A stretch of 64,000 nt of DNA from Prochlorococcus sp. AG-355-B18 (GTDB lineage Bacteria > Cyanobacteriota > Cyanobacteriia > PCC-6307 > Cyanobiaceae): positions 32,001 to 96,000 of the forward strand of contig QCDI01000001.1 of assembly GCA_003280965.1 (NCBI GenBank), given 5' to 3'. Below are positions 8,892 to 64,000 of the stretch, one piece after another (the first letter of the stretch is position 1; each line of letters opens with the position of its first letter). Position numbers and translations under genes: made by a program. The notes under the pieces are model-generated. The model ran no database searches, had not been told where the DNA came from, and worked only from the letters and a program-made list of their open reading frames with translations.

Positions 8892-8976
8892 GGAGAGGTG
8901 GCTGAGAGGTCGAAAGCGAACGACTCGAAATCGTTTAATAGGGAACTATTCGTGGGTTCGAATCCCACCCTCTCCG
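8892..8976 (+). tRNA. tRNA-Ser (anticodon CGA)
   Basis: GGAGAGG/CCTCTCC acceptor stem, AACGA-CTCGAAA-TCGTT anticodon arm, long variable arm, GGTTCGAATCC T-arm; CCA not encoded. Confidence 0.96.
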
Positions 8977-9286: not shown

Positions 9287-9411
9287 TTGGTTGACAGTTG
9301 ATCTAAAATTTAGAATAAACATCTATTTTATATGGTGTATTCAGGTGACATTTAGAGAACGCGAGAATGATATCGACTTAGTTACATCAAATTTCAAAAT
9401 TTTTTTCGGAC

Positions 9412-10951: not shown

Positions 10952-10982
10952 GTGAAAGAAATAATTTGCCTACCTTATAAAA

Positions 10983-11077
10983 GTAGAGGAGTTGTTTTAT
11001 TGAATTAGTGGAAACAAGGAAACACTTTATTCAGTAAAACTAAAAAAGACCCCTGTAATTAAGGGGTCTTTTTTTTT
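10983..11077 (+). ncRNA. Yfr2-family small RNA
   Basis: 5' GTAGAGGAG, GGAAACA-A-GGAAACA loop at 11010-11024, terminator AAAGACCCCT/AGGGGTCTTT(T)n, -10 TACCTT at 10971. Confidence 0.85.
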
Positions 11078-13761: not shown

Positions 13762-15144
13762 TTAATCTAAATCAGGCATTTCTAGAGCTGGTTCACTCTT
13801 TCTGTCGATTCCTTTCTCGAAACCAGCAGCGGCTGCTCTAGCACGTCCAGCATGCCAAAGGTGACCGATGAATGTAAACCATCCTAGGAAGAATTGAGCT
13901 GCAGCTAACCATTGTCTTAAGTTAACAAAGTTAACAGCATTTGGCTCTGTAATGATTCCACCAACAGAGTTGATAGAAGCGTTGGGAGCATGAGTCATAT
14001 ATTCAGCAGCTCTTCTTACTTGCCAAGGCTGAATATCATTTTGGATTTTCTCGAGGCTCAAACCGTTAGGACCTCTTAAAGGCTCTAACCATGGACCTCT
14101 GAAGTCCCAAAATCTCATTGTTTCACCACCAAATATAATTTCACCTGTAGGAGATCTCATGAGATACTTACCTAAACCTGTTGGTCCCATTGTTGAACCT
14201 ACGTTAGCTCCAATTCTTTGGTCTCTCACAAGGAAAGTAAAGCTTTGAGCCTGTGAAGCTTCAGCATTAGTTGGGCCATAAAACTCTGAAGGGTAAGCAG
14301 TATTATTAAACCAGATGAATGTTGAAGCAATAAAACTTGCTACACAAATTCCACCTAGAGCGTAACTTAAGAGTCCTTCACCATTCCAGATGAATGCTCT
14401 TCTTGCCCATCCAAAAGGTTTGGTAAAGATATGGAATATTCCTCCAATAATTGCAGTAATACCCACATAAACATGTCCACCAACAATATCTTCAATGGAG
14501 TTAACACCGATTATTGAACCAGCACCTCCCCATGGAGATCTAAATAGATAACCAAGAATAACCCTTGGATCTAAAGTTGGGTTAACAAGTCTAACTTCTC
14601 CACCACCAGGAGCCCATGTGTCATATGCACCGCCAATAAAACACCAGTTAACTGACCATGCCAATGCACCTACACCAAGGACAATCAAATGATATCCGAG
14701 GATATTAGTCATTTGATTTTTGTCTCTCCAATCAGTGGAGAAAAATGGAAAATCTTCTTCAAGTTTTTCTGGACCTGCTAATGAATGGTAAATACCACCA
14801 AAACCAAGAACAGCAGAAGCTATCAAATGAACCACACCTGCTTGGAAGAAAGGCATGATGTCAGTAACTTCACCACCAGGGCCAATACCGTAGCCAAACA
14901 TCGCAACGTGTGGCATACAGATTAGACCTTGCTCCCACATTGGTTTATCAAAAGTAAAATGATTAACCTCAAAGAGCATCATTGCTCCCGCCCAAAAAAC
15001 TATTAGTCCAGAGTGAGCAATGTGAGCTCCTAATAAACGTCCAGATAAATTGATTAATCTAGCATTACCTACATACCAGGCATAGCCAGTTTCTTCAATA
15101 CTTTGGTTTGGAGCTCTTAATAAATTATTAAAGGGCGTTTCCAC
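13762..15144 (-). CDS. psbC: Photosystem II CP43
   Basis: GTG start at 15144 overlapping psb[20 protein letters not shown]. Confidence 0.98.
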
Positions 15145-37753: not shown

Positions 37754-37844
37754 ATAACAAAATATTTTTGCGTATTTACTATAAAAATAAATCAGTTAAA
37801 ATCTGTGAGCTTACTTGAAATTTTCATGTAAGAATTAGGTAATC

Positions 37845-37883
37845 GAGAGATTGTTTTTAGCTAAGAAACAATCTCTTTTTTTT
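37845..37883 (+). terminator. Rho-independent terminator
   Basis: GAGAGATTGTTT-N9-AAACAATCTCT followed by T-run. Confidence 0.75.
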
Positions 37884-37895
37884 ATTTTTTCTCAT

Positions 37896-46985: not shown

Positions 46986-47048
46986 TAACGTTCATCCAAG
47001 TTTATATATCTGGACGCATGACATGGGAATAGGGAACGGGATTCTCAT
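46986..47048 (+). promoter_or_regulatory. Downstream-peptide (glutamine class II) riboswitch
   Basis: CGTTCA...TCCA/TGGA-CGCA...GAACGGG; P1 CGTTC/GAACG; pseudoknot ATGGGAAT/ATTCTCAT; -10 TATTAT at 46974. Confidence 0.75.
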
Positions 47049-52287: not shown

Positions 52288-52579
52288 ATGTATAAATGAA
52301 GTTAATGTTTTATAGAAGTTTTTTTTATGAATGTCTTGTCAATCTTTATTTCAAGAAAAAGTACTTTTTAGAGGGTTTCTAACGAAAAAAATATTCATTT
52401 AAGAACACACAAACTCATTTGGTAAAATCTATTACCTAAGACGATTTGAATAACTTATACATAAGCAATATCCCTATAAGATTATCTACTAAATTTAAGA
52501 ATAAATTTTAAAAAAAAGGCTTAACAAAATTTACATTGACAGTCGAATTAAAATTAAGAGGTAATTGATCTCATTTTGT

Positions 52580-52975
52580 ATGAAGTTAAAAAATATTTTA
52601 AAAACTACTGGGGCACTTCATTTACTCTTGGGAGCATTAATTATTTTCCTACTAATTTTTTCTGCAGAAACTATTGCGGGCAATGCTTCACGTGAAACGT
52701 TGCTTCTTGTAAGAGGCACTGCTGATGTTGTTGCTGCAAGTAATTTGGGAATTGGTTTTTTATTAATTATTTGTAGTTCTATAAAAGATAAAGTTTCTTT
52801 AAGAAAAGTTTTATCAGGTGAATTAGTTTTAATGTTTTGCTTTTTAGCAGTAGCCCTATTTAATACTTTTAATGCTGGGTCAATTGTTGATGGAGGACCT
52901 CCTCCTCCATTTTGGATTGTTTTGATAGTCAATCCACTTTTATGTATTTATGGATTATTTAATAATAAAAATTGA
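52580..52975 (+). CDS. Four-TM membrane protein (copy 1)
   Basis: GGPPPPFWIVL motif; ~90% identical paralog at window end. Confidence 0.75.
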   Translation: MKLKNILKTTGALHLLLGALIIFLLIFSAETIAGNASRETLLLVRGTADVVAASNLGIGFLLIICSSIKDKVSLRKVLSGELVLMFCFLAVALFNTFNAGSIVDGGPPPPFWIVLIVNPLLCIYGLFNNKN

Positions 52976-53168: not shown

Positions 53169-53348
53169 TTATTAATTTTGGAACATTAAAATTAAATTTG
53201 AGGAAGCTTTTCAATATCTATATTTTCTCTTAAGCATTAAATGAATAAATTTCTATGATCGAAAAAATAGGATTTGTTTTTAATATTATTATTGACAGTC
53301 AACTTAAAATAATAAGATTAGGTAGTTTTTTTGAAAGACTTTTAAAAA

Positions 53349-53987
53349 ATGTGTGGAAGATTTGAGCTGAAAACTAAGTTTGCAAATTTGCCAGAGGTTT
53401 TGAAACAGGACTATCCCATAGGACTTGATTCTAAATACGAGACTCAAAGTTTAATTAGACCAACTGATCCTGTTCTTGTAATTAAAAACGAAGGAAGAAT
53501 TAAAACTACTTTTATGGCATGGGGCTTTATTTCTCCTTGGGCTAAAGATCCATTTGATAAAAAGAGACCAAGACCATTTAATGCAAGATCAGAAACGGTA
53601 GAAGAAAAAAAATTATTTAGTAGAAGTTGGAAACACAAAAGGTGTTTAATACCAGCTAGTGGTTTTTTTGAAAAGAAATATCGTATTCGAAAGGAGAATT
53701 ATGACACTTTTTGGTTAGGAGGAATCTGGAGTAAGTGGACCTCACCAGATGGCGCTGAACTTGAAAGTTGCTGTGTTTTAACAACTGAACCAAATGCTTT
53801 AGTTAAACCTCTTCATAATCGTATGCCTGTTGTAGTCCCTAATGGGTATGAGGAACAGTGGACAGAGCAAGTTAAAGATTCTGATGAAATAAAAGGTTTA
53901 CTTCCAATTTTGATGGGTTGGTCACCCCATGGATGGCTGGTAGAGGATGTAAAGAAAAAAGAAACTGATCAAATTAGTTTGTTTTAA
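53349..53987 (+). CDS. SOS response-associated peptidase (SRAP/YedK, abasic-site protein)
   Basis: N-terminal MCGRF, NARSET, RCLIPASGFFE, HNRMP. Confidence 0.92.
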   Translation: MCGRFELKTKFANLPEVLKQDYPIGLDSKYETQSLIRPTDPVLVIKNEGRIKTTFMAWGFISPWAKDPFDKKRPRPFNARSETVEEKKLFSRSWKHKRCLIPASGFFEKKYRIRKENYDTFWLGGIWSKWTSPDGAELESCCVLTTEPNALVKPLHNRMPVVVPNGYEEQWTEQVKDSDEIKGLLPILMGWSPHGWLVEDVKKKETDQISLF

Positions 53988-54811: not shown

Positions 54812-54873
54812 ACCATAAATTTAAGTCCTACATTGACAATAGATCTAAAATAAAAAAATTAGTATCTTATTTA

Positions 54874-55257
54874 ATGACAAATACTAAATCAATTAAAGAT
54901 TTAATAGAGGGTTACGCAAATAGCGAAGATTCCTCTTTCCTCATACCAAATGCAACTGAAGATTTTTTAGCAGTCAGACCAAGTGGAAATCCAATTTCTG
55001 CAAAAGGGTTAGTTGGAATGTTTAATAGTAAAGACTTAGTTGCAGAGTCATCAGAACTAGTAAAAACCCATAAAATTGAGATTTTTGGTGATATAGCTTA
55101 TGCAGTATTTACCTTAAATGAAATCTTTAGTTATAAAGGAAATCAAAATAAAGATCTTTCAACTTATACTTGTATTTTTAAACATGAAAATGGCACTTGG
55201 AAATATTCTTGGATGCAAAGATCACAAGGTACTACAGACATGAAAACTTGGGAATAA
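54874..55257 (+). CDS. DUF3804 (NTF2/SnoaL-like) protein
   Basis: FLAVRPSGNPI, FSYKG, WKYSWMQRS; ATG 54874. Confidence 0.75.
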   Translation: MTNTKSIKDLIEGYANSEDSSFLIPNATEDFLAVRPSGNPISAKGLVGMFNSKDLVAESSELVKTHKIEIFGDIAYAVFTLNEIFSYKGNQNKDLSTYTCIFKHENGTWKYSWMQRSQGTTDMKTWE

Positions 55258-57416: not shown

Positions 57417-57671
57417 TCAAAGGATTGGATATGCTATCCATCCAAATAAGGTGTAGTTAATAATGACAGCCATGAAGCCAATCATTGCAAGCCTTCCATT
57501 TGTTCTTTCCGCAATAAACCAGTAGGTATTTGGCCATTCAAAATTTTCTCCCATATTAGATATTTGATCTTCTGAGACTGGATTCTCTGCAAGATCTTTT
57601 TCATTTTCCGCATAAAAATTACTATCTGGGTAAAAGCTTTCGCTTGAAAAATTATCTTTAAATTTACTCAT
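57417..57671 (-). CDS. hli: High-light-inducible protein
   Basis: AERTNGRLAMIGF. Confidence 0.9.
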   Translation of the reverse strand: MSKFKDNFSSESFYPDSNFYAENEKDLAENPVSEDQISNMGENFEWPNTYWFIAERTNGRLAMIGFMAVIINYTLFGWIAYPIL

Positions 57672-57866
57672 TTTCTAAAATTAACTTCTATCATCCTAAA
57701 AAGTTTTTTTTAATTATGTTGTTATATCTGCTTTTTAATATTTCATTACCATTGCCAAATGGGAATAAACACTAAAAGAGTTTTACCCTTCAATTTTAGA
57801 TCGACTGTCAATCAAGTGATTTTTAAATTAAGAGCTCTAGAATAGTTTTTAATTATATTTTTTCTA

Positions 57867-58147
57867 TGCTTTTTTTAATTTCTTATAAGTTCTCTGATGC
57901 GACCGCGCAAGAGAAGGGAGCTAAAATGCTAACAGAATAGTACGACAAAGGAGGACCGCAAAATAGACCAGAGAATTATGACGTAAAATCTTGGATTTTC
58001 TTACCTCAACATGGAAACGGTTACTCTGTTGTAGATACAGATTCTTTAGAAACTATTTGGCGTCAATGGCGACCTTGGAGAGAATTAATGGAGATTACTA
58101 TTGAACCTTGTGCCGATTTAGATGAAGTAGTAGCTCTATATCGTTAA
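57867..58147 (+). pseudogene. DUF3303-family gene with internal amber stop
   Basis: MLFLISYKFSD...MLTE*YDKGGPQNRPENY...WRQWRPWRELMEITIEP; TAG at a likely Trp codon (~57938-57940). Confidence 0.7.
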
Positions 58148-58204
58148 TGAAACGCATACTAATTTGCACTGCTAATAGTTGGCAATTGAGATTCTATATT
58201 AAAT
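58148..58204 (+). repeat. Degenerate copy of ~55 bp island junction element
   Basis: TGAAACGCATACTAATTTGCACTGCTA...CAATTGAGATTCTATATTAAAT, immediately after a stop codon. Confidence 0.7.
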
Positions 58205-58293
58205 AATTCCTCTAGCAGAAGTATTCATTTCAAGATCCTTAACTCAATTTTAAATAATTTATCCTAGAAAAGGTTAGTGAATTTATTAATCAA

Positions 58294-58632
58294 ATGAATA
58301 CTTATTTAGTAACTGCAACTTTTAAAAACGTAGCTCTAATGGGTGCAGCTTATGATCTTTTTTTAAAGGTTATCGAAGATGGAACTTTAAATGATGAGTT
58401 TGAAGGATTCAAAGTTTTGGGAAGGTATCATGCCTCTTACTCAAATAATGTTTATATTATTGTCCAAGCTTCAGCAGGCATAAAAATGACAGAACACTTT
58501 GCTCCTTGGAAAGTTAAGTTTGATATAGATTTTGATATCAAGCCAGTTATGACTGACGATGAAAAAGTTGCTGAGCATAAGCTTGTTGGTTCATTAATGG
58601 CAGCAGAACAGAAAATGGGATTCACAGGTTAA
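58294..58632 (+). CDS. DUF3303-family protein
   Basis: DEFEGFKVLGRYH, HFAPW, DIKPVMTD. Confidence 0.75.
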   Translation: MNTYLVTATFKNVALMGAAYDLFLKVIEDGTLNDEFEGFKVLGRYHASYSNNVYIIVQASAGIKMTEHFAPWKVKFDIDFDIKPVMTDDEKVAEHKLVGSLMAAEQKMGFTG

Positions 58633-58819
58633 TTATTTTATAGAGACTTAGATTATGAATATATTATCTCCGTTTGGAAAGTGACCTAAAATTAGTAATA
58701 CTACTGGTATATATCGAGTAATTTTATATAAATTCCCAACAGTACTAATATTGCTAGACCTACACCAATAACTTAATTTGGCTGATTACGCCAAAGCTCT
58801 TGAAAAATTCCATTAAAGA

Positions 58820-58969
58820 TTAATAAGCAAATTGGTGCTTTTTATATATTTTTCTATAGTCTTCATGCAACCTTTCAGTTGCTAATTTTCTTCTATTCAT
58901 TGCATCTCTAATTAAATCCATTTGGTTTAATTTTCCATTGATAATAGTGAATGATGTAGTTAGTTTCAT
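58820..58969 (-). CDS. Small hypothetical protein, 49 aa
   Basis: AGAGG RBS; MKLTTSFTII...DLIRDAMNRRKL. Confidence 0.5.
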   Translation of the reverse strand: MKLTTSFTIINGKLNQMDLIRDAMNRRKLATERLHEDYRKIYKKHQFAY

Positions 58970-59006
58970 AAAACCTCTTTATTTAGTAAAGACTAAAATT
59001 AAGAAC

Positions 59007-59189
59007 TCAGTCACAGTAAATTAAACAATTTTGATTTGTTGGATGTTCTCTACATTCTTTCTCCCAAAAGTTTTCAAACTCAGGAGTACATTTCACAAGT
59101 TCTTTTGGAGTTTCGTTAAGGTTTAATCCTGCATAATTAAACGCCGTTAAGTATCTTGGAAGAATGTTAAATTGATTGAATAGTTCCAT
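59007..59189 (-). CDS. Small protein with CP12-like C-terminus
   Basis: GGAGG RBS; FWEKECREHPTNQNCLIYCD (C-x8-C-x2-Y). Confidence 0.65.
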   Translation of the reverse strand: MELFNQFNILPRYLTAFNYAGLNLNETPKELVKCTPEFENFWEKECREHPTNQNCLIYCD

Positions 59190-59345
59190 AAGACCTCCTA
59201 GATCTATATCTATATTGTCCTCCTTTTTAATTGAAATTCATAGAGTATTATTACCTGAGTAAAAGTGCTTTGTAATTGTTACGACTATCTTTTAGCACTT
59301 AATTGAAGTAAAAATAATACAGGAGTCAAAAGTACTTCATCGACT

Positions 59346-59939
59346 TTGTGCTCAGCGAGGTGCATACGACATGATGTTCAGGCATTACCATCAATTAGCC
59401 CTTATTTGTCATCAGAGAATAAAAATATACGAAAAGAGGCAGTTATTACGATTAGATATCTTAATCAATTAACCCATTTTACCCCAGCGAACACTCTTGC
59501 TAATGATCCCGATCAAGAAGTAAGAAAGGAAACAATGTTAACTCTTGGGAATTTTAGAGAAGATTGTATTGTTCCAATTTTGTGTAATTCCCTAGAAAAT
59601 GATGAGTCTTGGGAAGTAAGACGAAATGCAGCCATCGCATTGGAAATGCATGGGGATAATTCTTCTTCTAAATCTCTTTCTTCTGCAATTTCAGACTCGC
59701 ATTGGCAGGTAAGGAAGTTTTCAATGAGAGCTCTTACAAAAGTATTATCCAAGGAATATTTAGGGGAAATAGTGAAATTACTTTGTGACGATTATTCAGA
59801 TGTGAGAAAAGAAGCTGCTATCGCTTTAGGTTTATTAGGCTCTAAAAAGGCAATCCCATCTCTAAAACAATCATTAGATGATGCTGATATTGAAGTGAGA
59901 ATTCAATCTCAAAAAGCTTTAGAAAAATTGAATGTATGA
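59346..59939 (+). CDS. HEAT-repeat protein, probably 5'-truncated
   Basis: Repeated D-x-x-x-VR-x-x-A motifs; weak TTG start that opens mid-repeat. Confidence 0.75.
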   Translation: MCSARCIRHDVQALPSISPYLSSENKNIRKEAVITIRYLNQLTHFTPANTLANDPDQEVRKETMLTLGNFREDCIVPILCNSLENDESWEVRRNAAIALEMHGDNSSSKSLSSAISDSHWQVRKFSMRALTKVLSKEYLGEIVKLLCDDYSDVRKEAAIALGLLGSKKAIPSLKQSLDDADIEVRIQSQKALEKLNV

Positions 59940-60949
59940 GTAATTCAAAGGAGGATAATAAAGAAAATGAGGCTAGACAGAATCATGTAAAAGAATATTT
60001 AAAAACTCTAGAACTTAGAGAAATTTATGGTGATCTTATCTCATCTTGCGTTGTAAGGAATATAAGAGTAGTTGGAGATTATTTATATTTGAAGTTATTT
60101 CTTGGATCAGATCAAATTAAATTAAAGGAAATAATTGAGAATAAACTAAAAATTTTTTCATGGGCGAAAAAAGTATATTTAGATCTCAAATTTATTAAAG
60201 GAGTTAAAAGGACAATTGCTATTGGTAGTGGTAAGGGTGGCGTAGGTAAATCTTCTGTAACTGTTGGCCTTGCTTTAAATTTAAAAAAAAGAGGTTTCAA
60301 AGTAGGTATTTTAGATGCCGATGTTTATGGACCTAATATCCCTAATATTGTTGGATTGAGTAAACAAGACGTATTGACTAAGGAGGAAAATGGAAAAGTT
60401 AAATTTATTGCATTAGATCATGAAGACTTGAAAATAATGTCTGTTGCAATGCTTGCAAAATCAAATCAATCACTTGCATGGAGAGGTCCGATATTAACAA
60501 GATTACTAAATCAGTTTTTGTATCAAGTTGATTGGGGTGAATTAGATTTCTTGCTTATCGATCTTCCTCCAGGTACTGGCGACACTCAGATAACTCTTCT
60601 TCAAGATAGTCCAATAGTTGGGGTGATTTTAGTTACTTTGCCAGGTTCATCATCTTATTCTGATTTAATAAGAACAACGTCTATGTATGAAAATTTTGGA
60701 ATGCCAATTTATGGATTGATTGAAAATATGTCTTTCTATAAATGCCCTTGCTGTTCTCATGAGGAAAAGTTATTTATGGACGAAACGATGCCAAATGAAA
60801 CCATTAAAAGTAAATACAGTCTTTTAACAAGTTTGCCCATTATCAATACTAAATTACGTATTGAGGGCATAAATCTATTTTTAAAAAAAGAAAATAGCAA
60901 GTATTTCGATAACGTATGTTCATTAATTGAGGAAAAGGCAAATTTTTAA
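59936..60949 (+). CDS. mrp: Mrp/ApbC/NBP35 Fe-S carrier ATPase
   Basis: SGKGGVGKS, DADVYGP, WRGP, DLPPGTGD, ENMSFYKCPCC. Confidence 0.88.
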   Translation: MSNSKEDNKENEARQNHVKEYLKTLELREIYGDLISSCVVRNIRVVGDYLYLKLFLGSDQIKLKEIIENKLKIFSWAKKVYLDLKFIKGVKRTIAIGSGKGGVGKSSVTVGLALNLKKRGFKVGILDADVYGPNIPNIVGLSKQDVLTKEENGKVKFIALDHEDLKIMSVAMLAKSNQSLAWRGPILTRLLNQFLYQVDWGELDFLLIDLPPGTGDTQITLLQDSPIVGVILVTLPGSSSYSDLIRTTSMYENFGMPIYGLIENMSFYKCPCCSHEEKLFMDETMPNETIKSKYSLLTSLPIINTKLRIEGINLFLKKENSKYFDNVCSLIEEKANF

Positions 60950-61100
60950 AATGATTAATTCTCTTCAATCAAAATTTAAATTAGTTTCAATAATATGGAT
61001 TTAAAAATAATGTATAGAATAGAAATTCAGTCACATCTTACCCAACTTAATATAAGAAAATTTAAAGTAATTTCAAGTGAATTTATCCTCTAAAAAAACT

Positions 61101-61439
61101 ATGAAAAAACTATTAATTCTTACTATCCTTTTAATTTCTTCTTGCAGTACTAAAGATGAACTATCCATTACTGATGAAAATAAATTATTTTCTGTAACTA
61201 AAGAAACTGCAGTTCTTGTTTGTGGAGGTAAATCAAGATTAATTGAAAGTAAAAATCAAGAAATAATCAAAGTAGAAATCAAGGATTCTTCGAGTACTGA
61301 AAAAGAAAAATTTGTTCAATTTACTGTTGTTGAAACTGATAGAAAAGGCGGCAAATATAGAATTGTCAATTGTTATCCAAATAAAGATCCTAAAAAATCG
61401 ATAGTAAAAACAATAACTACTAGTTACAAGCTAAATTAG
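61101..61439 (+). CDS. Hypothetical lipoprotein
   Basis: MKKLLILTILLISSC lipobox-like. Confidence 0.65.
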   Translation: MKKLLILTILLISSCSTKDELSITDENKLFSVTKETAVLVCGGKSRLIESKNQEIIKVEIKDSSSTEKEKFVQFTVVETDRKGGKYRIVNCYPNKDPKKSIVKTITTSYKLN

Positions 61440-61491
61440 TTCAATACGAAATGATGTAGTCATTTGATAATTGACAGTCTATCTCTTACGG

Positions 61492-61743
61492 CTATTTTTT
61501 AGCCCCTGTTTTAATAATATTTTTTCTTCTAAATTGAATATTTGCTGATATTTTTTCCGCCAAAGTTGGAAGATTTGGTGGCTCCAGCATAAGATAAACT
61601 CTTCCTGATTTTTCTAAATAAATATAGTCTTCTAATAAGTTTCTGTTGAGAAGTCGATAGATTGTTTTGGTGGATTTATAGCCTAATTTTTTTGCTGCAT
61701 GGCTAATCGTAAAAGCTTCAATTTCGAATGACTTTGGTTTCAT
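61492..61743 (-). CDS. Excisionase/MerR-like HTH DNA-binding protein
   Basis: FTISHAAKKLGYKSTKTIYRLL; likely ATG 61743. Confidence 0.6.
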   Translation of the reverse strand: MKPKSFEIEAFTISHAAKKLGYKSTKTIYRLLNRNLLEDYIYLEKSGRVYLMLEPPNLPTLAEKISANIQFRRKNIIKTGAKK

Positions 61744-62027
61744 AATATTCTGTTTGATTCCTATAAGTAGAGTATCCAAATCTCTTTAATCTTCTTTGAT
61801 GTAATTCCCAATTTTTAGTATTTATATCTGGGCTTTTAAGTTCCCTTTCATATTGAATAGTTCGATAACTCTTAACACCATTTTTTTTTTCTTAATGCAG
61901 AAGTAAACCCAATAACTGATAAAAAAAATATAAGTACTATTACAAATCCAACTGTACTTTCAATATCTATTTTGTCCTGATATTCCTCTAATGAACTTTT
62001 AGTAGTTGCTATAAAAATTTTTTTCAT
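61718..62027 (-). pseudogene. Frameshifted paralog of 36884-37174
   Basis: TM segment, +1 shift in T10 at 61881-61890, then PDINTKNWELHQRRLKRFGYSTY vs PDISTDNWDLHKLRLDKFKRSQY. Confidence 0.6.
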
Positions 62028-62036
62028 TTATATGAT

Positions 62037-62060
62037 CGGTGCAAGTAGTGAGCGTTTCAT
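62037..62060 (-). repeat. 5' half of junction element
   Basis: ATGAAACGCTCACTACTTGCACCG, 5 nt after the anti-sigma stop. Confidence 0.8.
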
Positions 62061-62065
62061 TTTAT

Positions 62066-62326
62066 TTAAAAATCATCAATAATATTTAAAGTTAGATAAT
62101 CATTTATTTGATCTACATTAACTAAATTTCTTGATGTCATTATTGAAGGAATAAAGACGCAAGTTATGATCAATGAAGCAAAAGTTAGTCCATATACTTT
62201 CGGTTTTAACCTAAAACCTTTTAGCCTTTTATGTAAAAAATCTAAGTTAAATTTTTTTGATTCTTGCTTATAAGAAAGTGCATTCTCAATCATTTGATTA
62301 AGACGTTCCTTTTTTAATTTAGACAT
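62066..62326 (-). CDS. Putative single-TM anti-sigma factor
   Basis: Overlaps sigma 3' end; basic N-terminal domain, one TM, short tail. Confidence 0.6.
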   Translation of the reverse strand: MSKLKKERLNQMIENALSYKQESKKFNLDFLHKRLKGFRLKPKVYGLTFASLIITCVFIPSIMTSRNLVNVDQINDYLTLNIIDDF

Positions 62327-62870
62327 ACAATAATTCCTCCAATAAATCCTTAGGCAAAATAGTTTTTAATTTTTTGCGAGCCCGTATAATTAGGCTTTCA
62401 GTAGCTTTTTCAGTTTTTTTTAAAATATTAGACACTTCCTTCTGTTTGTAACCACAAAAATAATGTAGCAGAATTGCTTCTTTTTGATGTGTAGGAAGTT
62501 TTTGAATATTATTCAATAGCATTTTTCTTAATTCATAATTACTGTTGTTATTTGTAATTTCTAGATTGGAATAATAATCTTTAAATTCATTGGAGCTTTT
62601 ATGTCTTCTTAGGAAATCCATACAAGTTGAAAACACTATCTTATAAACATATCCTTCAACACTTCCTTTATTTACCCAACGAGGAGCTGATTGCCAAATT
62701 TTAATTAAAGAAATTTGTACTACATCATCTGCATCGTCAAAATGCGTTGAACCCAAAAATTTAATTGCTGTTGCATGCATTTTGTATCCCAAAGCATTTG
62801 CTATAAAACGGAAGGATTCCTTATCACCCTTAGCAGTTTTAAGCATATAAGAGTTTAATTCCTCAGACAT
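62319..62870 (-). CDS. ECF (group 4) RNA polymerase sigma factor
   Basis: GDKESF, DADDVVQ...KIW (region 2); LPTHQKEAILLHYFCGYKQKEVSNIL...ESLIIRARKKL (region 4). Confidence 0.9.
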   Translation of the reverse strand: MSEELNSYMLKTAKGDKESFRFIANALGYKMHATAIKFLGSTHFDDADDVVQISLIKIWQSAPRWVNKGSVEGYVYKIVFSTCMDFLRRHKSSNEFKDYYSNLEITNNNSNYELRKMLLNNIQKLPTHQKEAILLHYFCGYKQKEVSNILKKTEKATESLIIRARKKLKTILPKDLLEELLYV

Positions 62871-62873
62871 TCT

Positions 62874-63173
62874 TTACTTCTCTTTATTCCTAAATTTTAA
62901 CCTTTTTCTTAATTCATACCTAAGTGCGCGTAATTCTTTTTTTGATAATTTACTATCAGCATTTTTATCAAAGTTTATAAATATTTTATCTATTCGAGCA
63001 CTATGAGCTGACATCATTTCGTCTTTTGAGAGAAGTCCATCTCCATTAGTATCTATCCTTTGAAAACGCCCACGCATCTTCATAAAATTATTCTTCTCAT
63101 AGATTGGATTGGCATAAGAGGGCAGTGCAATAAAAAAGCTCAATGCCAAAATTAAAATTGAAGAGTTTTTCAT
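62874..63173 (-). CDS. Secreted EF-hand protein
   Basis: Signal peptide; DTNGDGLLSKDE and DKNADSKLSKKE loops. Confidence 0.85.
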   Translation of the reverse strand: MKNSSILILALSFFIALPSYANPIYEKNNFMKMRGRFQRIDTNGDGLLSKDEMMSAHSARIDKIFINFDKNADSKLSKKELRALRYELRKRLKFRNKEK

Positions 63174-63199
63174 AAAGGTAATTAATATCTATAAATCAT

Positions 63200-63225
63200 T
63201 AACGCAAAAATTGATAAAATCCTTC
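63200..63225 (-). promoter_or_regulatory. Candidate ECF-dependent promoter
   Basis: GAAGGA-N15-CGTTA, 26 nt upstream of the EF-hand ATG. Confidence 0.5.
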
Positions 63226-63255
63226 GCGAAATCAATAAGGAGCTAAATGCATCTT

Positions 63256-63312
63256 ATTTTAGATCGACTGTCAATTGTAATTAATATAGCTGTGCAAGTA
63301 GTAAGCGTTTCA
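63256..63312 (-). repeat. Full ~55 bp junction element
   Basis: TGAAACGCTTACTACTTGCACAGCTATATTAATTACAATTGACAGTCGATCTAAAAT; first TGA is the upstream gene's stop. Confidence 0.9.
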
Positions 63313-63726
63313 TCTAGGAAGTATTCTATTTAATTCGGGATATTCAATTCTTAATTCTTCTATAAATGCATCAACGGTCTTTGATATCTCGTCAGTAGTA
63401 TTCAAAATAGAATTTTTATATTTTAGATATTCGGAAACTTGAAATAATTTCATAGTTGATTTTGTTAAAAGTAATGTTGCAAGAGGAGATTTATCTGCCA
63501 ATTTAGTTGAAGGAAAATATTTTATAGTTTCAGGATAAGTTTTTTCCATATCCTCAATATAGTCTTCTATCTTTTCATTTAATTCATCATATTTTGATGA
63601 TAAAAACTTTTTGGTATTTAAATATTCAAAACCTGCGAATAAAAAACCAATAGGAAAACTTAAAAATAATATTGAAAGAGAAAGCCTAAGAAGATTTTGG
63701 GAAAATTTTTCCATAGAAATAATCAA
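63310..63726 (-). CDS. Membrane-anchored hypothetical protein
   Basis: N-terminal TM; likely ATG 63714; bracketed by direct repeats. Confidence 0.65.
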   Translation of the reverse strand: MIISMEKFSQNLLRLSLSILFLSFPIGFLFAGFEYLNTKKFLSSKYDELNEKIEDYIEDMEKTYPETIKYFPSTKLADKSPLATLLLTKSTMKLFQVSEYLKYKNSILNTTDEISKTVDAFIEELRIEYPELNRILPR

Positions 63727-63822
63727 TTAAATTTATTTAAAACATATCAAGGTTAAAAGTAAGTAAAGCATGTAATATTTTTGCTTTCTTCTTCCGATCC
63801 ACTGAAATATTTAATTTTTATA

Positions 63823-63880
63823 ATTTCTATATCGACTGTCAATCGTATTTAATATAGCGGTGCAATTAGTAAGCGTTTCA
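63823..63880 (-). repeat. Full ~55 bp junction element
   Basis: 63831-63880 matches 63263-63312 at 46/50; first TGA is the upstream gene's stop. Confidence 0.9.
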
Positions 63881-64000
63881 GTTTTTATTGTTAACTAATC
63901 CATAGATACATAAAAGAGGATTCACTATCAAAACAATCCAGAAAGGAGGAGGGGGTCCTCCATCAACAATTGTCCCAGCGTTAAAAGTATTAAATAGAGC
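63878..64000 (-). CDS. Four-TM membrane protein (copy 2), 3' end only
   Basis: ALFNTFNAGTIVDGGPPPPFWIVLIVNPLLCIYGLVNNKN*; 38/40 aa identical to end of 52580-52975. Confidence 0.85.
   Translation of the reverse strand, partial: ALFNTFNAGTIVDGGPPPPFWIVLIVNPLLCIYGLVNNKN

Follow-up and report, generated by a model that had tools for sequence, protein, structure and literature searches.

In T4-type phages, promoter-early stem-loop cassettes (PeSLs), in which promoter and stem-loop motifs are combined, flank ORFans; in the accessible text of two reports, they mediate insertions and deletions between close relatives, yield mini-circles, and have demonstrated promoter and terminator activity (PMC2839356; PMC4122927). 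Here we describe a junction element with a comparable layout in Prochlorococcus sp. AG-355-B18. It recurs in a 64,000-nt stretch of DNA (the window), which is C1:32001-96000 of the genome that we denote G000, part of a 274-kb contig in a 1.58-Mb cellular genome (24 contigs, ~31% G+C). A first-pass annotation, made from the letters of the window, had reported a ~55 bp element at the joints of a gene-cassette array and had proposed an integron-like but non-attC cassette system. The reading of the element as a cassette joint is supported by our analysis; an integron-like mechanism is not. The element has two parts, a stub at its 5′ end and a 13-nt box at its 3′ end, and the box opens a ~45-nt module in front of the next gene. 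We propose, with moderate confidence, that this module is a PeSL-like portable promoter/terminator and that, together with the stump of a gene start, it provides the handles for homology-guided shuffling of cassettes.

As far as the available text on PeSLs goes, both systems are short conserved intergenic composites of promoter-like and terminator-like stem-loop sequence between small non-essential open reading frames (ORFs) in hyperplastic regions. In both, the motifs mark the ends of insertions, deletions and replacements that distinguish relatives, and a role as homology patches, by which cassettes would stay transcriptionally self-contained, has been proposed for them. The Prochlorococcus element differs in belonging to a bacterial chromosome, not to a phage. 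It has no -35/-10 pair; instead, its putative -10 hexamer is preceded by a 13-nt near-palindrome, the stem-loop lies past the hexamer, where it overlaps the predicted start, and the 5′ end of a gene serves as the second handle. Mini-circles and activities have been demonstrated for PeSLs in the text available to us, whereas the Prochlorococcus module is known from sequence alone. With integrons, the element shares co-oriented single-gene units, a repeated joint, and strain-variable content, and in many relatives a tyrosine recombinase abuts the first joint. It differs from them in that we found no IntI in the genome and no attC-like fold in the elements folded, and in having several breakpoint positions. 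Moreover, integron cassettes are promoterless and depend on one common promoter, whereas the cassettes here appear each to carry a promoter-like module, with TAnnnT at a fixed place before the ATG.

Tycheposons, according to the available text of the preprint, use partial tRNAs (Pro, Ser, Ala, Thr, Arg, Met, and tmRNA) as attachment sites (Hackl et al., 10.1101/2020.12.28.424599). The islands and the tRNA neighbourhood are the same here, a tycheposon-like core lies past the window end, and in two relatives a cassette block is found right behind integrase genes. The element, however, is not part of a tRNA, its best likeness being 18/20 to the anticodon arm of tRNA-Asn only. In the text available to us, the preprint does not describe the motif and has no occurrence of the word "promoter" (10.1101/2020.12.28.424599). 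CGRE1, like the module, is a conserved palindromic promoter element of marine picocyanobacteria, namely a 22-nt PMM1637 (GntR) site of yfr2 promoters with GTTA...TAAC flanks that begins 55-57 nt upstream of the start site, as far as the text of the report was accessible (PMC6191309). The box is not CGRE1, which differs in length, flanks, and position, and precedes yfr2 small RNA genes. The Yfr motifs and the "mobile cassettes" of cyanophages were likewise set aside as different things. Word and sequence searches (subscription journals and closed supplements lay outside their coverage) located no description of the motif, and a literal motif search of the full-text literature returned unrelated primer matches only. 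Tycheposon work covers the arrival of DNA at tRNA genes, not the sorting of single genes within islands, and it is an open question how high-light Prochlorococcus cells come to differ by small cassettes in otherwise near-identical genomes.

Anatomy of the junction element

The two 50-nt copies first reported, at 63263-63312 and 63831-63880 on the reverse strand, are indeed identical at 46/50 positions and lie 568 nt apart; 100 shuffles of the sequence gave 0 matches to the 50-nt element. The further copies of the 5′ half were also recovered, as a 14-mer at 62046-62059 (-) and at 58148-58161 (+) (4 matches versus 0.46 expected). The 3′ 13-mer is found in addition at 57800 (-) and at 61470, 52535, 53291, and 54832 (+) (11 matches with ≤2 mismatches versus 1.0 expected). 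The ~55 bp junction element is real, but it is a composite of two separable parts and not a single unit. The units between copies were correctly described: one gene between the full copies, and a module of EF-hand, ECF sigma, and 86-aa protein genes between 63263 and 62059. The copy at 58148 had been called inverted; it does lie on the opposite strand, but it is co-oriented with its own downstream gene.

The 5′ 32 nt of the element (ATGAAACGCTTACTAC...) open a reading frame. In the genome as a whole, this part usually follows an A, which gives ATG AAA CGC TTA CTA CT.., as at the beginning of a signal-peptide gene family (e.g., MKRLLLPLIAALALPTAVNAE). The stubs at junctions last only 10 codons (..GCA CCG CTA TAT TAA); a second allele has 13 codons (..CTA ATA GTT AGT AAT TGA) and stops within the box. 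Because the stub shares its start with full signal-peptide genes yet lasts only 10-13 codons, we identify it as the stump of such a gene. The ATG of the stub overlapped the stop of the upstream gene as ATGA or TAAATG, and this accounts for what had been described as a fusion of the element to upstream stop codons. The overlap itself is as reported: in both full copies, the opening TGA is the upstream stop (63310-63312 of ORF 63310..63726 and 63878-63880 of an ORF leaving the window), the copy at 62059 lies 6 nt past the stop of ORF 62066..62326, and the TGA at 58148 comes directly behind the TAA of a DUF3303 pseudogene. The fusion is a matter of descent, the 5′ half being what is left of a gene (its opening 10-13 codons) with an ATG that overlapped the preceding stop. 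Copy B in the window reads ATG AAA CGC TTA CTA CTT GCA CAG CTA TAT TAA, and a boxless stub (62028..62060) terminates in TAA immediately 5′ of the ATG of a 51-aa ORF (61872-62027).

With ≤3 mismatches, the 32-nt stub occurs at 61 places in 40/121 genomes of the genus, against 0 in the control. Among 35 readable copies, the box follows in 29 and an A stands in front in 25. Seen from the module, a stub lies upstream of the box in 39/140 copies, 30 of these with an offset of 37 nt, and box copies without a stub have nothing conserved upstream of the box. In other strains, a stub variant behind the SRAP gene overlaps the ATG of a DUF1651 gene (TAATG).

The module consists of the box (ATTGACAGTCGAT), a C, the -10-like hexamer TAnnnT, a hairpin, a T-run, and the ATG. 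An nhmmer profile run over 2.02 Mb (the host genome and 60 loci of relatives) gave 171 matches, which represent 143 distinct copies. Their core is ATTGACAGTCGAT-C-TAnnnT; the C precedes the hexamer in 130/141 copies, and the hexamer is TAAAAT in 76, TACAAT in 17, TAACAT in 13, and TAAACT in 12 of the same 141. In a 94-row alignment, T15 and A16 (T1 and A2 of the hexamer) are invariant and T20 (its T6) is at least 90% conserved, a conservation pattern that, as far as alignment can tell, is the signature of a -10 hexamer. The hairpin behind it has two main forms, AAGGGGCAATTAGCTCCTT and AGAGGGATAAAACCCTCT. The 30 nt past the hexamer fold at -5.75 kcal/mol compared to -1.95 kcal/mol in shuffles, and a consensus scan labels the hairpins terminator-like. 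An ORF starts 25-39 nt past the box in 81/141 copies. The box itself is nearly palindromic, and the form ATTGACAGTCAAT occurs. No Rfam family and no tRNA was called on the element. A miniature inverted-repeat transposable element (MITE) or repetitive extragenic palindrome (REP) was rejected as an identity for it: the folds have no terminal inverted repeat, and the module is co-oriented with the next gene at the spacing just given.

In the window, copy B has the box at 63263-63275, then C, TAAAAT at 63256-63261, and a decayed hairpin at 63237-63255, and copy A shows a promoter-like match TTGACA-17-AAAAAT across 63814-63842.

Distribution and cargo

The 20-mer ATTGACAGTCGATCTAMAAT (≤1 mismatch) was found in 23/24 and 4/4 sampled genomes of the genus, in 1-13 clustered copies each, with 0 in a reversed-pattern control. 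It is present in 1/146 other genomes of the family and in 0/16 other cyanobacterial genera. In closed genomes, the copies cluster as well (e.g., G015 has 11 of its 13 copies in two places, 358-360 kb and 1347-1365 kb). The element is thus genus-wide, which rules out a local duplication. All 50,697 phage records lack the 20-mer, and 2.9 million viral contigs hold one exact match, on an IMG/VR contig (L011) at positions 41-60, the extreme end of the contig, beside tail-fibre-like genes. A phage origin of the element was rejected on these grounds. The letters past the 20-mer in L011 resemble the leader of the EF-hand gene of the window; this contig is either a chimera or a phage with a host cassette.

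Behind the module, 23/50 ORFs have Pfam families, and these are of many unrelated kinds (among them DUF3764, DUF3303, DUF3804, SRAP, HAD, pseudouridine synthase, ABM, plastocyanin-like protein, DUF1330, ligase domain, zinc ribbon, and lyase). The EF-hand/ECF sigma/86-aa unit is a rare accessory module (9/121 genomes of the genus) that stays a three-gene unit in the three relatives whose loci were read.

Breakpoints between strains

When the far flanks of 140 module copies were clustered, all 26 left-flank clusters with at least two copies were found to join two or more different right flanks, and 22/28 right-flank clusters join two or more left flanks. Where the same downstream gene has different upstream flanks, similarity is lost ≤10 nt from the 5′ edge of the box in 94/101 pairs, and in 16/22 clusters all same-gene pairs are sharp at this edge. 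Over the 12 nt 5′ of the box, same-gene pairs have 4.38 identical positions and unrelated pairs 4.70, so there is no excess. Pairs that share the left flank break either immediately past the box and hexamer (left clusters 15, 23, 36, 55, and 62) or immediately past the hairpin and T-run (left clusters 1, 6, 8, 10, and 85); in some of the latter, a rare box or hairpin variant travels with the left flank. Breakpoints fall at several positions across ~95 nt, with no single crossover point.

Variant joints were also seen in four assembled Logan contigs of seawater RNA libraries, which inform on joints only and not on 5′ or 3′ ends. These depart from the window at 63241, where the hairpin ends, at 63275, where the box begins on its 5′ side, and at 63292 within the stub, the last continuing as a full signal-peptide gene, and they include two deletion forms elsewhere in the window.

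The cassette system proposed at the outset was correct in that the element marks joints of one or a few genes, that the partners vary between strains, and that breakpoints coincide with the element. We found neither constant flanks, nor randomly placed breakpoints, nor a local duplication that would explain the copies. The integron-like, site-specific mechanism was not supported: IntI and an attC-like fold were sought in vain (in the genome and in six folds, described below), each cassette has its own -10-like hexamer, and the breakpoints are spread over ~95 nt.

A recently spread block of two cassettes

The stretch 63292-64317 in window coordinates consists of a box, the 131-aa gene, a stub and box, the 134-aa gene, and a stub. 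It is 98.4-99.6% identical in six other genomes, in five of which 6 kb of core DNA were compared and are 90-91% identical. Judged by its sequence, it is a recently spread block. On its upstream side, the block has six different flanks, two of them integrase gene 3′ ends, and in every case the flank gives way to the block inside the module; the switch lies at the box, between hexamer and hairpin, or at the T-run. On its downstream side, there are six different partners, and in every case identity is lost somewhere in nt 11-23 of the stub. Beyond that point, full signal-peptide genes of two kinds, three different continuations of stub, box, and gene, or unrelated DNA take over.

Recombinases beside the box

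That no recombinase lies in the window needs qualification, as a tyrosine recombinase gene is located 3.3 kb beyond its end. It belongs to a tycheposon-like core 1.2-4.5 kb past the window (L042:13189-16520, equal to G000 C1:97189-100520), and a box starts 3 nt past its stop. The integrase family of this recombinase is present in 36/121 genomes of the genus. We sampled 20 of its 48 listed places, taken from the top of the list without G000, G017, and fragments and representing 18 relatives (L072-L091), and found a box (≤2 mismatches) within ~25-60 nt of the end of the integrase match, a few nt at most from the integrase stop, in 16/20; both integrase copies of G017 are box-followed as well. 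As a baseline, 32/282 ORFs of at least 100 aa in island loci are followed by a box. The genes behind the integrase-linked box differ even within one integrase subtype. The co-occurring recombinase that the first-pass annotation had asked for is thus found nearby, in a family usually followed by the box, but a site-specific role for it is unproven. The simplest reading of the association is that box cassettes are the usual cargo of tycheposon-type elements. Genomes with both stub and integrase number 16 against 11.9 expected, a comparison that is confounded by assembly quality and was not used.

The integron integrase profile TIGR02249 (IntI) had 0 matches in the host genome, which is 99.35% complete; its four PF00589 matches are other tyrosine recombinases. 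Six single-stranded DNA folds of full elements had z-scores from -1.68 to +1.41 and contained no attC-like fold, only a local 18-nt hairpin. Of 37 tRNAs, the one most like the box region in reverse complement is tRNA-Asn(GTT) (G000 C7:42888-42961), whose anticodon arm agrees with it at 18/20 positions. In the available text of the tycheposon preprint, tRNA-Asn is not among the island tRNAs named (10.1101/2020.12.28.424599).

Proposed mechanism and alternatives

We suggest that the junction element is a seam between neighbouring cassettes, built from two conserved portable pieces. The stub would be the first 10-13 codons of a signal-peptide gene, the remainder of which has been replaced. In the module, TAnnnT would serve as the -10 hexamer of the next gene, with transcription predicted to start ~7 nt past it, which in both hairpin forms is either the last base of the 5′ arm or the base that opens the loop. 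The mRNA of the cassette itself would be made without the hairpin; read-through from upstream would form the hairpin and a U-run and terminate. A terminator nested in a promoter in this manner would insulate each cassette. The box would be placed at about -26 to -14, and because it is nearly palindromic at this position, we suggest that it is an operator, probably for a DNA-binding protein. As pieces of 16-45 nt that recur before or behind many unrelated island genes, stub and module would be portable homology patches, and recombination in them could delete, insert, or replace single cassettes while leaving genes and promoters intact. Elements of the tycheposon type are the likely vehicles between cells. 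The several break positions over ~95 nt and the use of a gene 5′ end as second handle argue against one site-specific crossover and for exchange guided by short homology.

Several observations weigh against this reading. With 16-23 nt in the stub and ~20-45 nt in the module, the patches of shared sequence are short, at or below the usual need of RecA-dependent exchange, and selection alone could sharpen the apparent boundaries. The loci were gathered by a motif search, so the shuffling counts are ascertained on the motif, and 6/28 right-flank clusters retain a single left flank. In three other genomes, no box accompanies the three-gene ECF unit. No conserved -35 was found in the module copies, and the TTGACA within the box has the hexamer just 7 nt away. 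The hairpin shows weak covariation: its arms pair at 78.0% against 74.4% in shuffles, and its covariation score is 0.273 against 0.245, with 6/500 shuffles reaching 0.273. Partners slid by +2 or +3 pair equally well because the arms are simply purine-rich and pyrimidine-rich, and from the covariance model and the pair counts, we rejected covariation as support for the hairpin. Finally, the motif was not found in the supplements of PMC5607370 (12/22 files) and PMC5069720.

The box might alternatively be a signal of a regulon only, box and hexamer forming a shared operator and promoter with no part in recombination, so that only rearrangements that spare the promoter survive. We think this unlikely, although it would fit the fixed orientation and distance to the ATG, the position of the near-palindrome between the -35 and -10 positions, the genus-wide occurrence of the motif, and the stable synteny of some copies (the 6/28 right-flank clusters with one left flank). 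Random breakpoints would leave some shared residue, yet same-gene pairs resemble each other just 5′ of the box no more than unrelated pairs do. In all six genomes, the limits of the block of 99% identity fall within the module on one side and within the stub on the other, and the stub, which has no obvious regulatory role, is conserved in nucleotides at 61 places. A pure regulon explains the conservation of the module but leaves the stub and the nucleotide-sharp boundaries unaccounted for. Rather less probable still, in our judgement, is that the box is a core recombination site, resembling a tRNA anticodon arm, at which tycheposon-type tyrosine recombinases or another enzyme load and unload cassettes beside the integrase gene. 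Anticodon arms are classical integrase targets, and the 18/20 match to that of tRNA-Asn, the sharp boundary at the 5′ edge of the box, and the excess over baseline of boxes adjoining integrase ends, which involves several subtypes and to which the box at G000 C1:100523 and the two in G017 can be added, would all agree with such a role. The arms of the box would then be short inverted repeats around the 7 nt TTGACAG, in an arrangement like that of attI beside intI. Breakpoints, however, are also seen past the hexamer, past the hairpin, and within the stub; the integrases beside the same box are only 32-85% identical to the family representative; four complete genomes with 4-13 boxes (G015, G018, G021, and G024) have no integrase match at E ≤1e-20; and neither IntI nor an attC-like fold was found in the searches above. 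As far as the preprint text available to us goes, the sites known for tycheposons are other kinds of partial tRNA (10.1101/2020.12.28.424599). A tycheposon-style site-specific role of the box is possible but unproven. If it were true, the most abundant phototroph would have in its islands a functional equivalent of the integron, based on a promoter-bearing site and not on attC.

We regard it as very improbable that the 5′ half is functional in itself, be it as an ECF-sigma promoter (TGAAAC-N15/16-CG..) for the sigma factor of the window or as a translated leader peptide (MKRLLLAPLY). The TGAAAC of the stub resembles the -35 of ECF promoters, and the A that turns the stub start into ATG is present in 25/35 copies. 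In the other 10/35, the start is TTG or CTG, the two stub alleles stop at different places, and identical nucleotides open full-length genes. The ECF sigma factor occurs in 9/121 genomes and the stub in 40/121, with only 3 having both, and on this co-occurrence the stub was rejected as an ECF promoter. An origin of the copies by chance or through one local tandem duplication has a negligible probability: two of them are only 568 nt apart, but shuffles gave 0, and the occurrence in 40/121 genomes with many different flanks refutes it.

Under the PeSL-like reading that we favour, a module that lies at the exact breakpoints of exchange, bounds a block spread across 9-10% core divergence, and stands behind integrase genes offers a concrete and testable mechanism for cassette differences. 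The module could also serve as a sequence tag for cassette borders in metagenomes, and the box, as a candidate operator for many island genes of unknown function, would give a handle on their regulation.

Features of the window and its surroundings

The window carries hli-type, DUF3764, DUF3303, and DUF1651 genes together with Yfr19, Cyano-1, and IsrR-like RNAs, a content in keeping with a high-light Prochlorococcus. The coordinates of the element copies, the cassette genes, and the tycheposon-like core are collected in Table 1. The box variant at 61470..61504 has no co-oriented gene downstream, and we therefore regard it as a remnant.

Table 1. Copies of the junction element and associated genes (window coordinates unless a contig or locus is named)
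Feature	Position	Strand	Remarks
Stub, copy A	63849..63880	-	Opening 32 nt of a gene start of signal-peptide type (TGAAACGCTTACTAATTGCACCGCTATATTAA); the 131-aa gene upstream stops at its TGA
Box, copy A (ATTGACAGTCGAT)	63831..63843	-	Without canonical -10 and hairpin
Stub, copy B	63281..63312	-	TGA (63310-63312) is the stop of the 134-aa gene
Promoter-like/hairpin module, copy B	63223..63275	-	49.7 bits; 5′ of the EF-hand/ECF sigma/86-aa module
Stub without box	62028..62060	-	11-codon frame including stop; opens with the gene-start motif
Decayed stub and box	58148..58204	+	5′ of DUF3303 gene (58294-58632); intact counterpart in locus L024
Box, TAAAAT, and short hairpin	57765..57812	-	41.5 bits; 5′ of hli-type gene 57417-57671
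Box variant (ATTGACAGTCTAT) and terminator-like hairpin (61490-61504)	61470..61504	+	Without co-oriented gene behind
Box-module variant	52535..52587	+	31.2 bits; 5′ of a paralogue (52580-52975) of the 131-aa cassette gene
Box-module variant (palindromic ATTGACAGTCAAC)	53291..53341	+	29.2 bits; 5′ of SRAP gene 53349-53987
Box-module variant	54832..54882	+	31.7 bits; 5′ of DUF3804 gene 54874-55257
Cassette gene, 134 aa	63310..63714	-	Without confident family
131-aa cassette gene, 3′ end	63878..64000	-	Extends to 64273 past the window; own box 64306-64318
Three-gene unit	62066..63173	-	EF-hand (62874-63173), ECF-type sigma factor (62319-62870), 86-aa protein (62066-62326)
Full signal-peptide genes with stub-like start	C1:101182, C2:1374, C11:64663 and 65576, C18:1915 and 3094		Host genome
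AAA_25 protein, 414 aa	C1:97189-98433		Tycheposon-like core
87-aa ORF			Tycheposon-like core past the window; no Pfam match
Weak partial tRNA	L042:15108-15164		31.2 bits
Tyrosine recombinase, 416 aa	C1:99270-100520		PF00589, E 1.7e-4

The inverted paralogues of the 131-aa cassette gene, at 52580-52975 (+) and 63878-64273 (-), share one island, and each follows a box module, the hairpins of which differ. The DUF3303-type pseudogene in front of the decayed stub, at 57866-58147 (+), has an in-frame TAG at codon 25, where the copy of a relative has W. One natural form in the RNA-library contigs lacks 57816-58218, and in another, 53990 is joined to 54557 with 566 nt skipped and a stub-like string in between. 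Cover by the seawater RNA contigs is low over 61676-63076, from which no interpretation was drawn.

Rfam matches over threshold in the window are tRNA-Ser(CGA) (8892-8976), Cyano-1 (10977-11046), an IsrR-like antisense RNA (14547-14730), Yfr19 (37809-37890), and a glutamine-II riboswitch (46986-47048). A weak match to the box module (9290-9340) is situated near this tRNA-Ser(CGA). Box copies at G000 C1:96657-96669, at C11:66882, and in loci L055 and L057 continue as ..TTAGCTCCTTCTCAACCTCTTTGAGTTCCTCTCAATAATTCTCG, without a clear ORF, and their downstream flanks fall into a single cluster, to which four different left flanks are joined. No Rfam family matched these copies, which may represent a box-driven small RNA.

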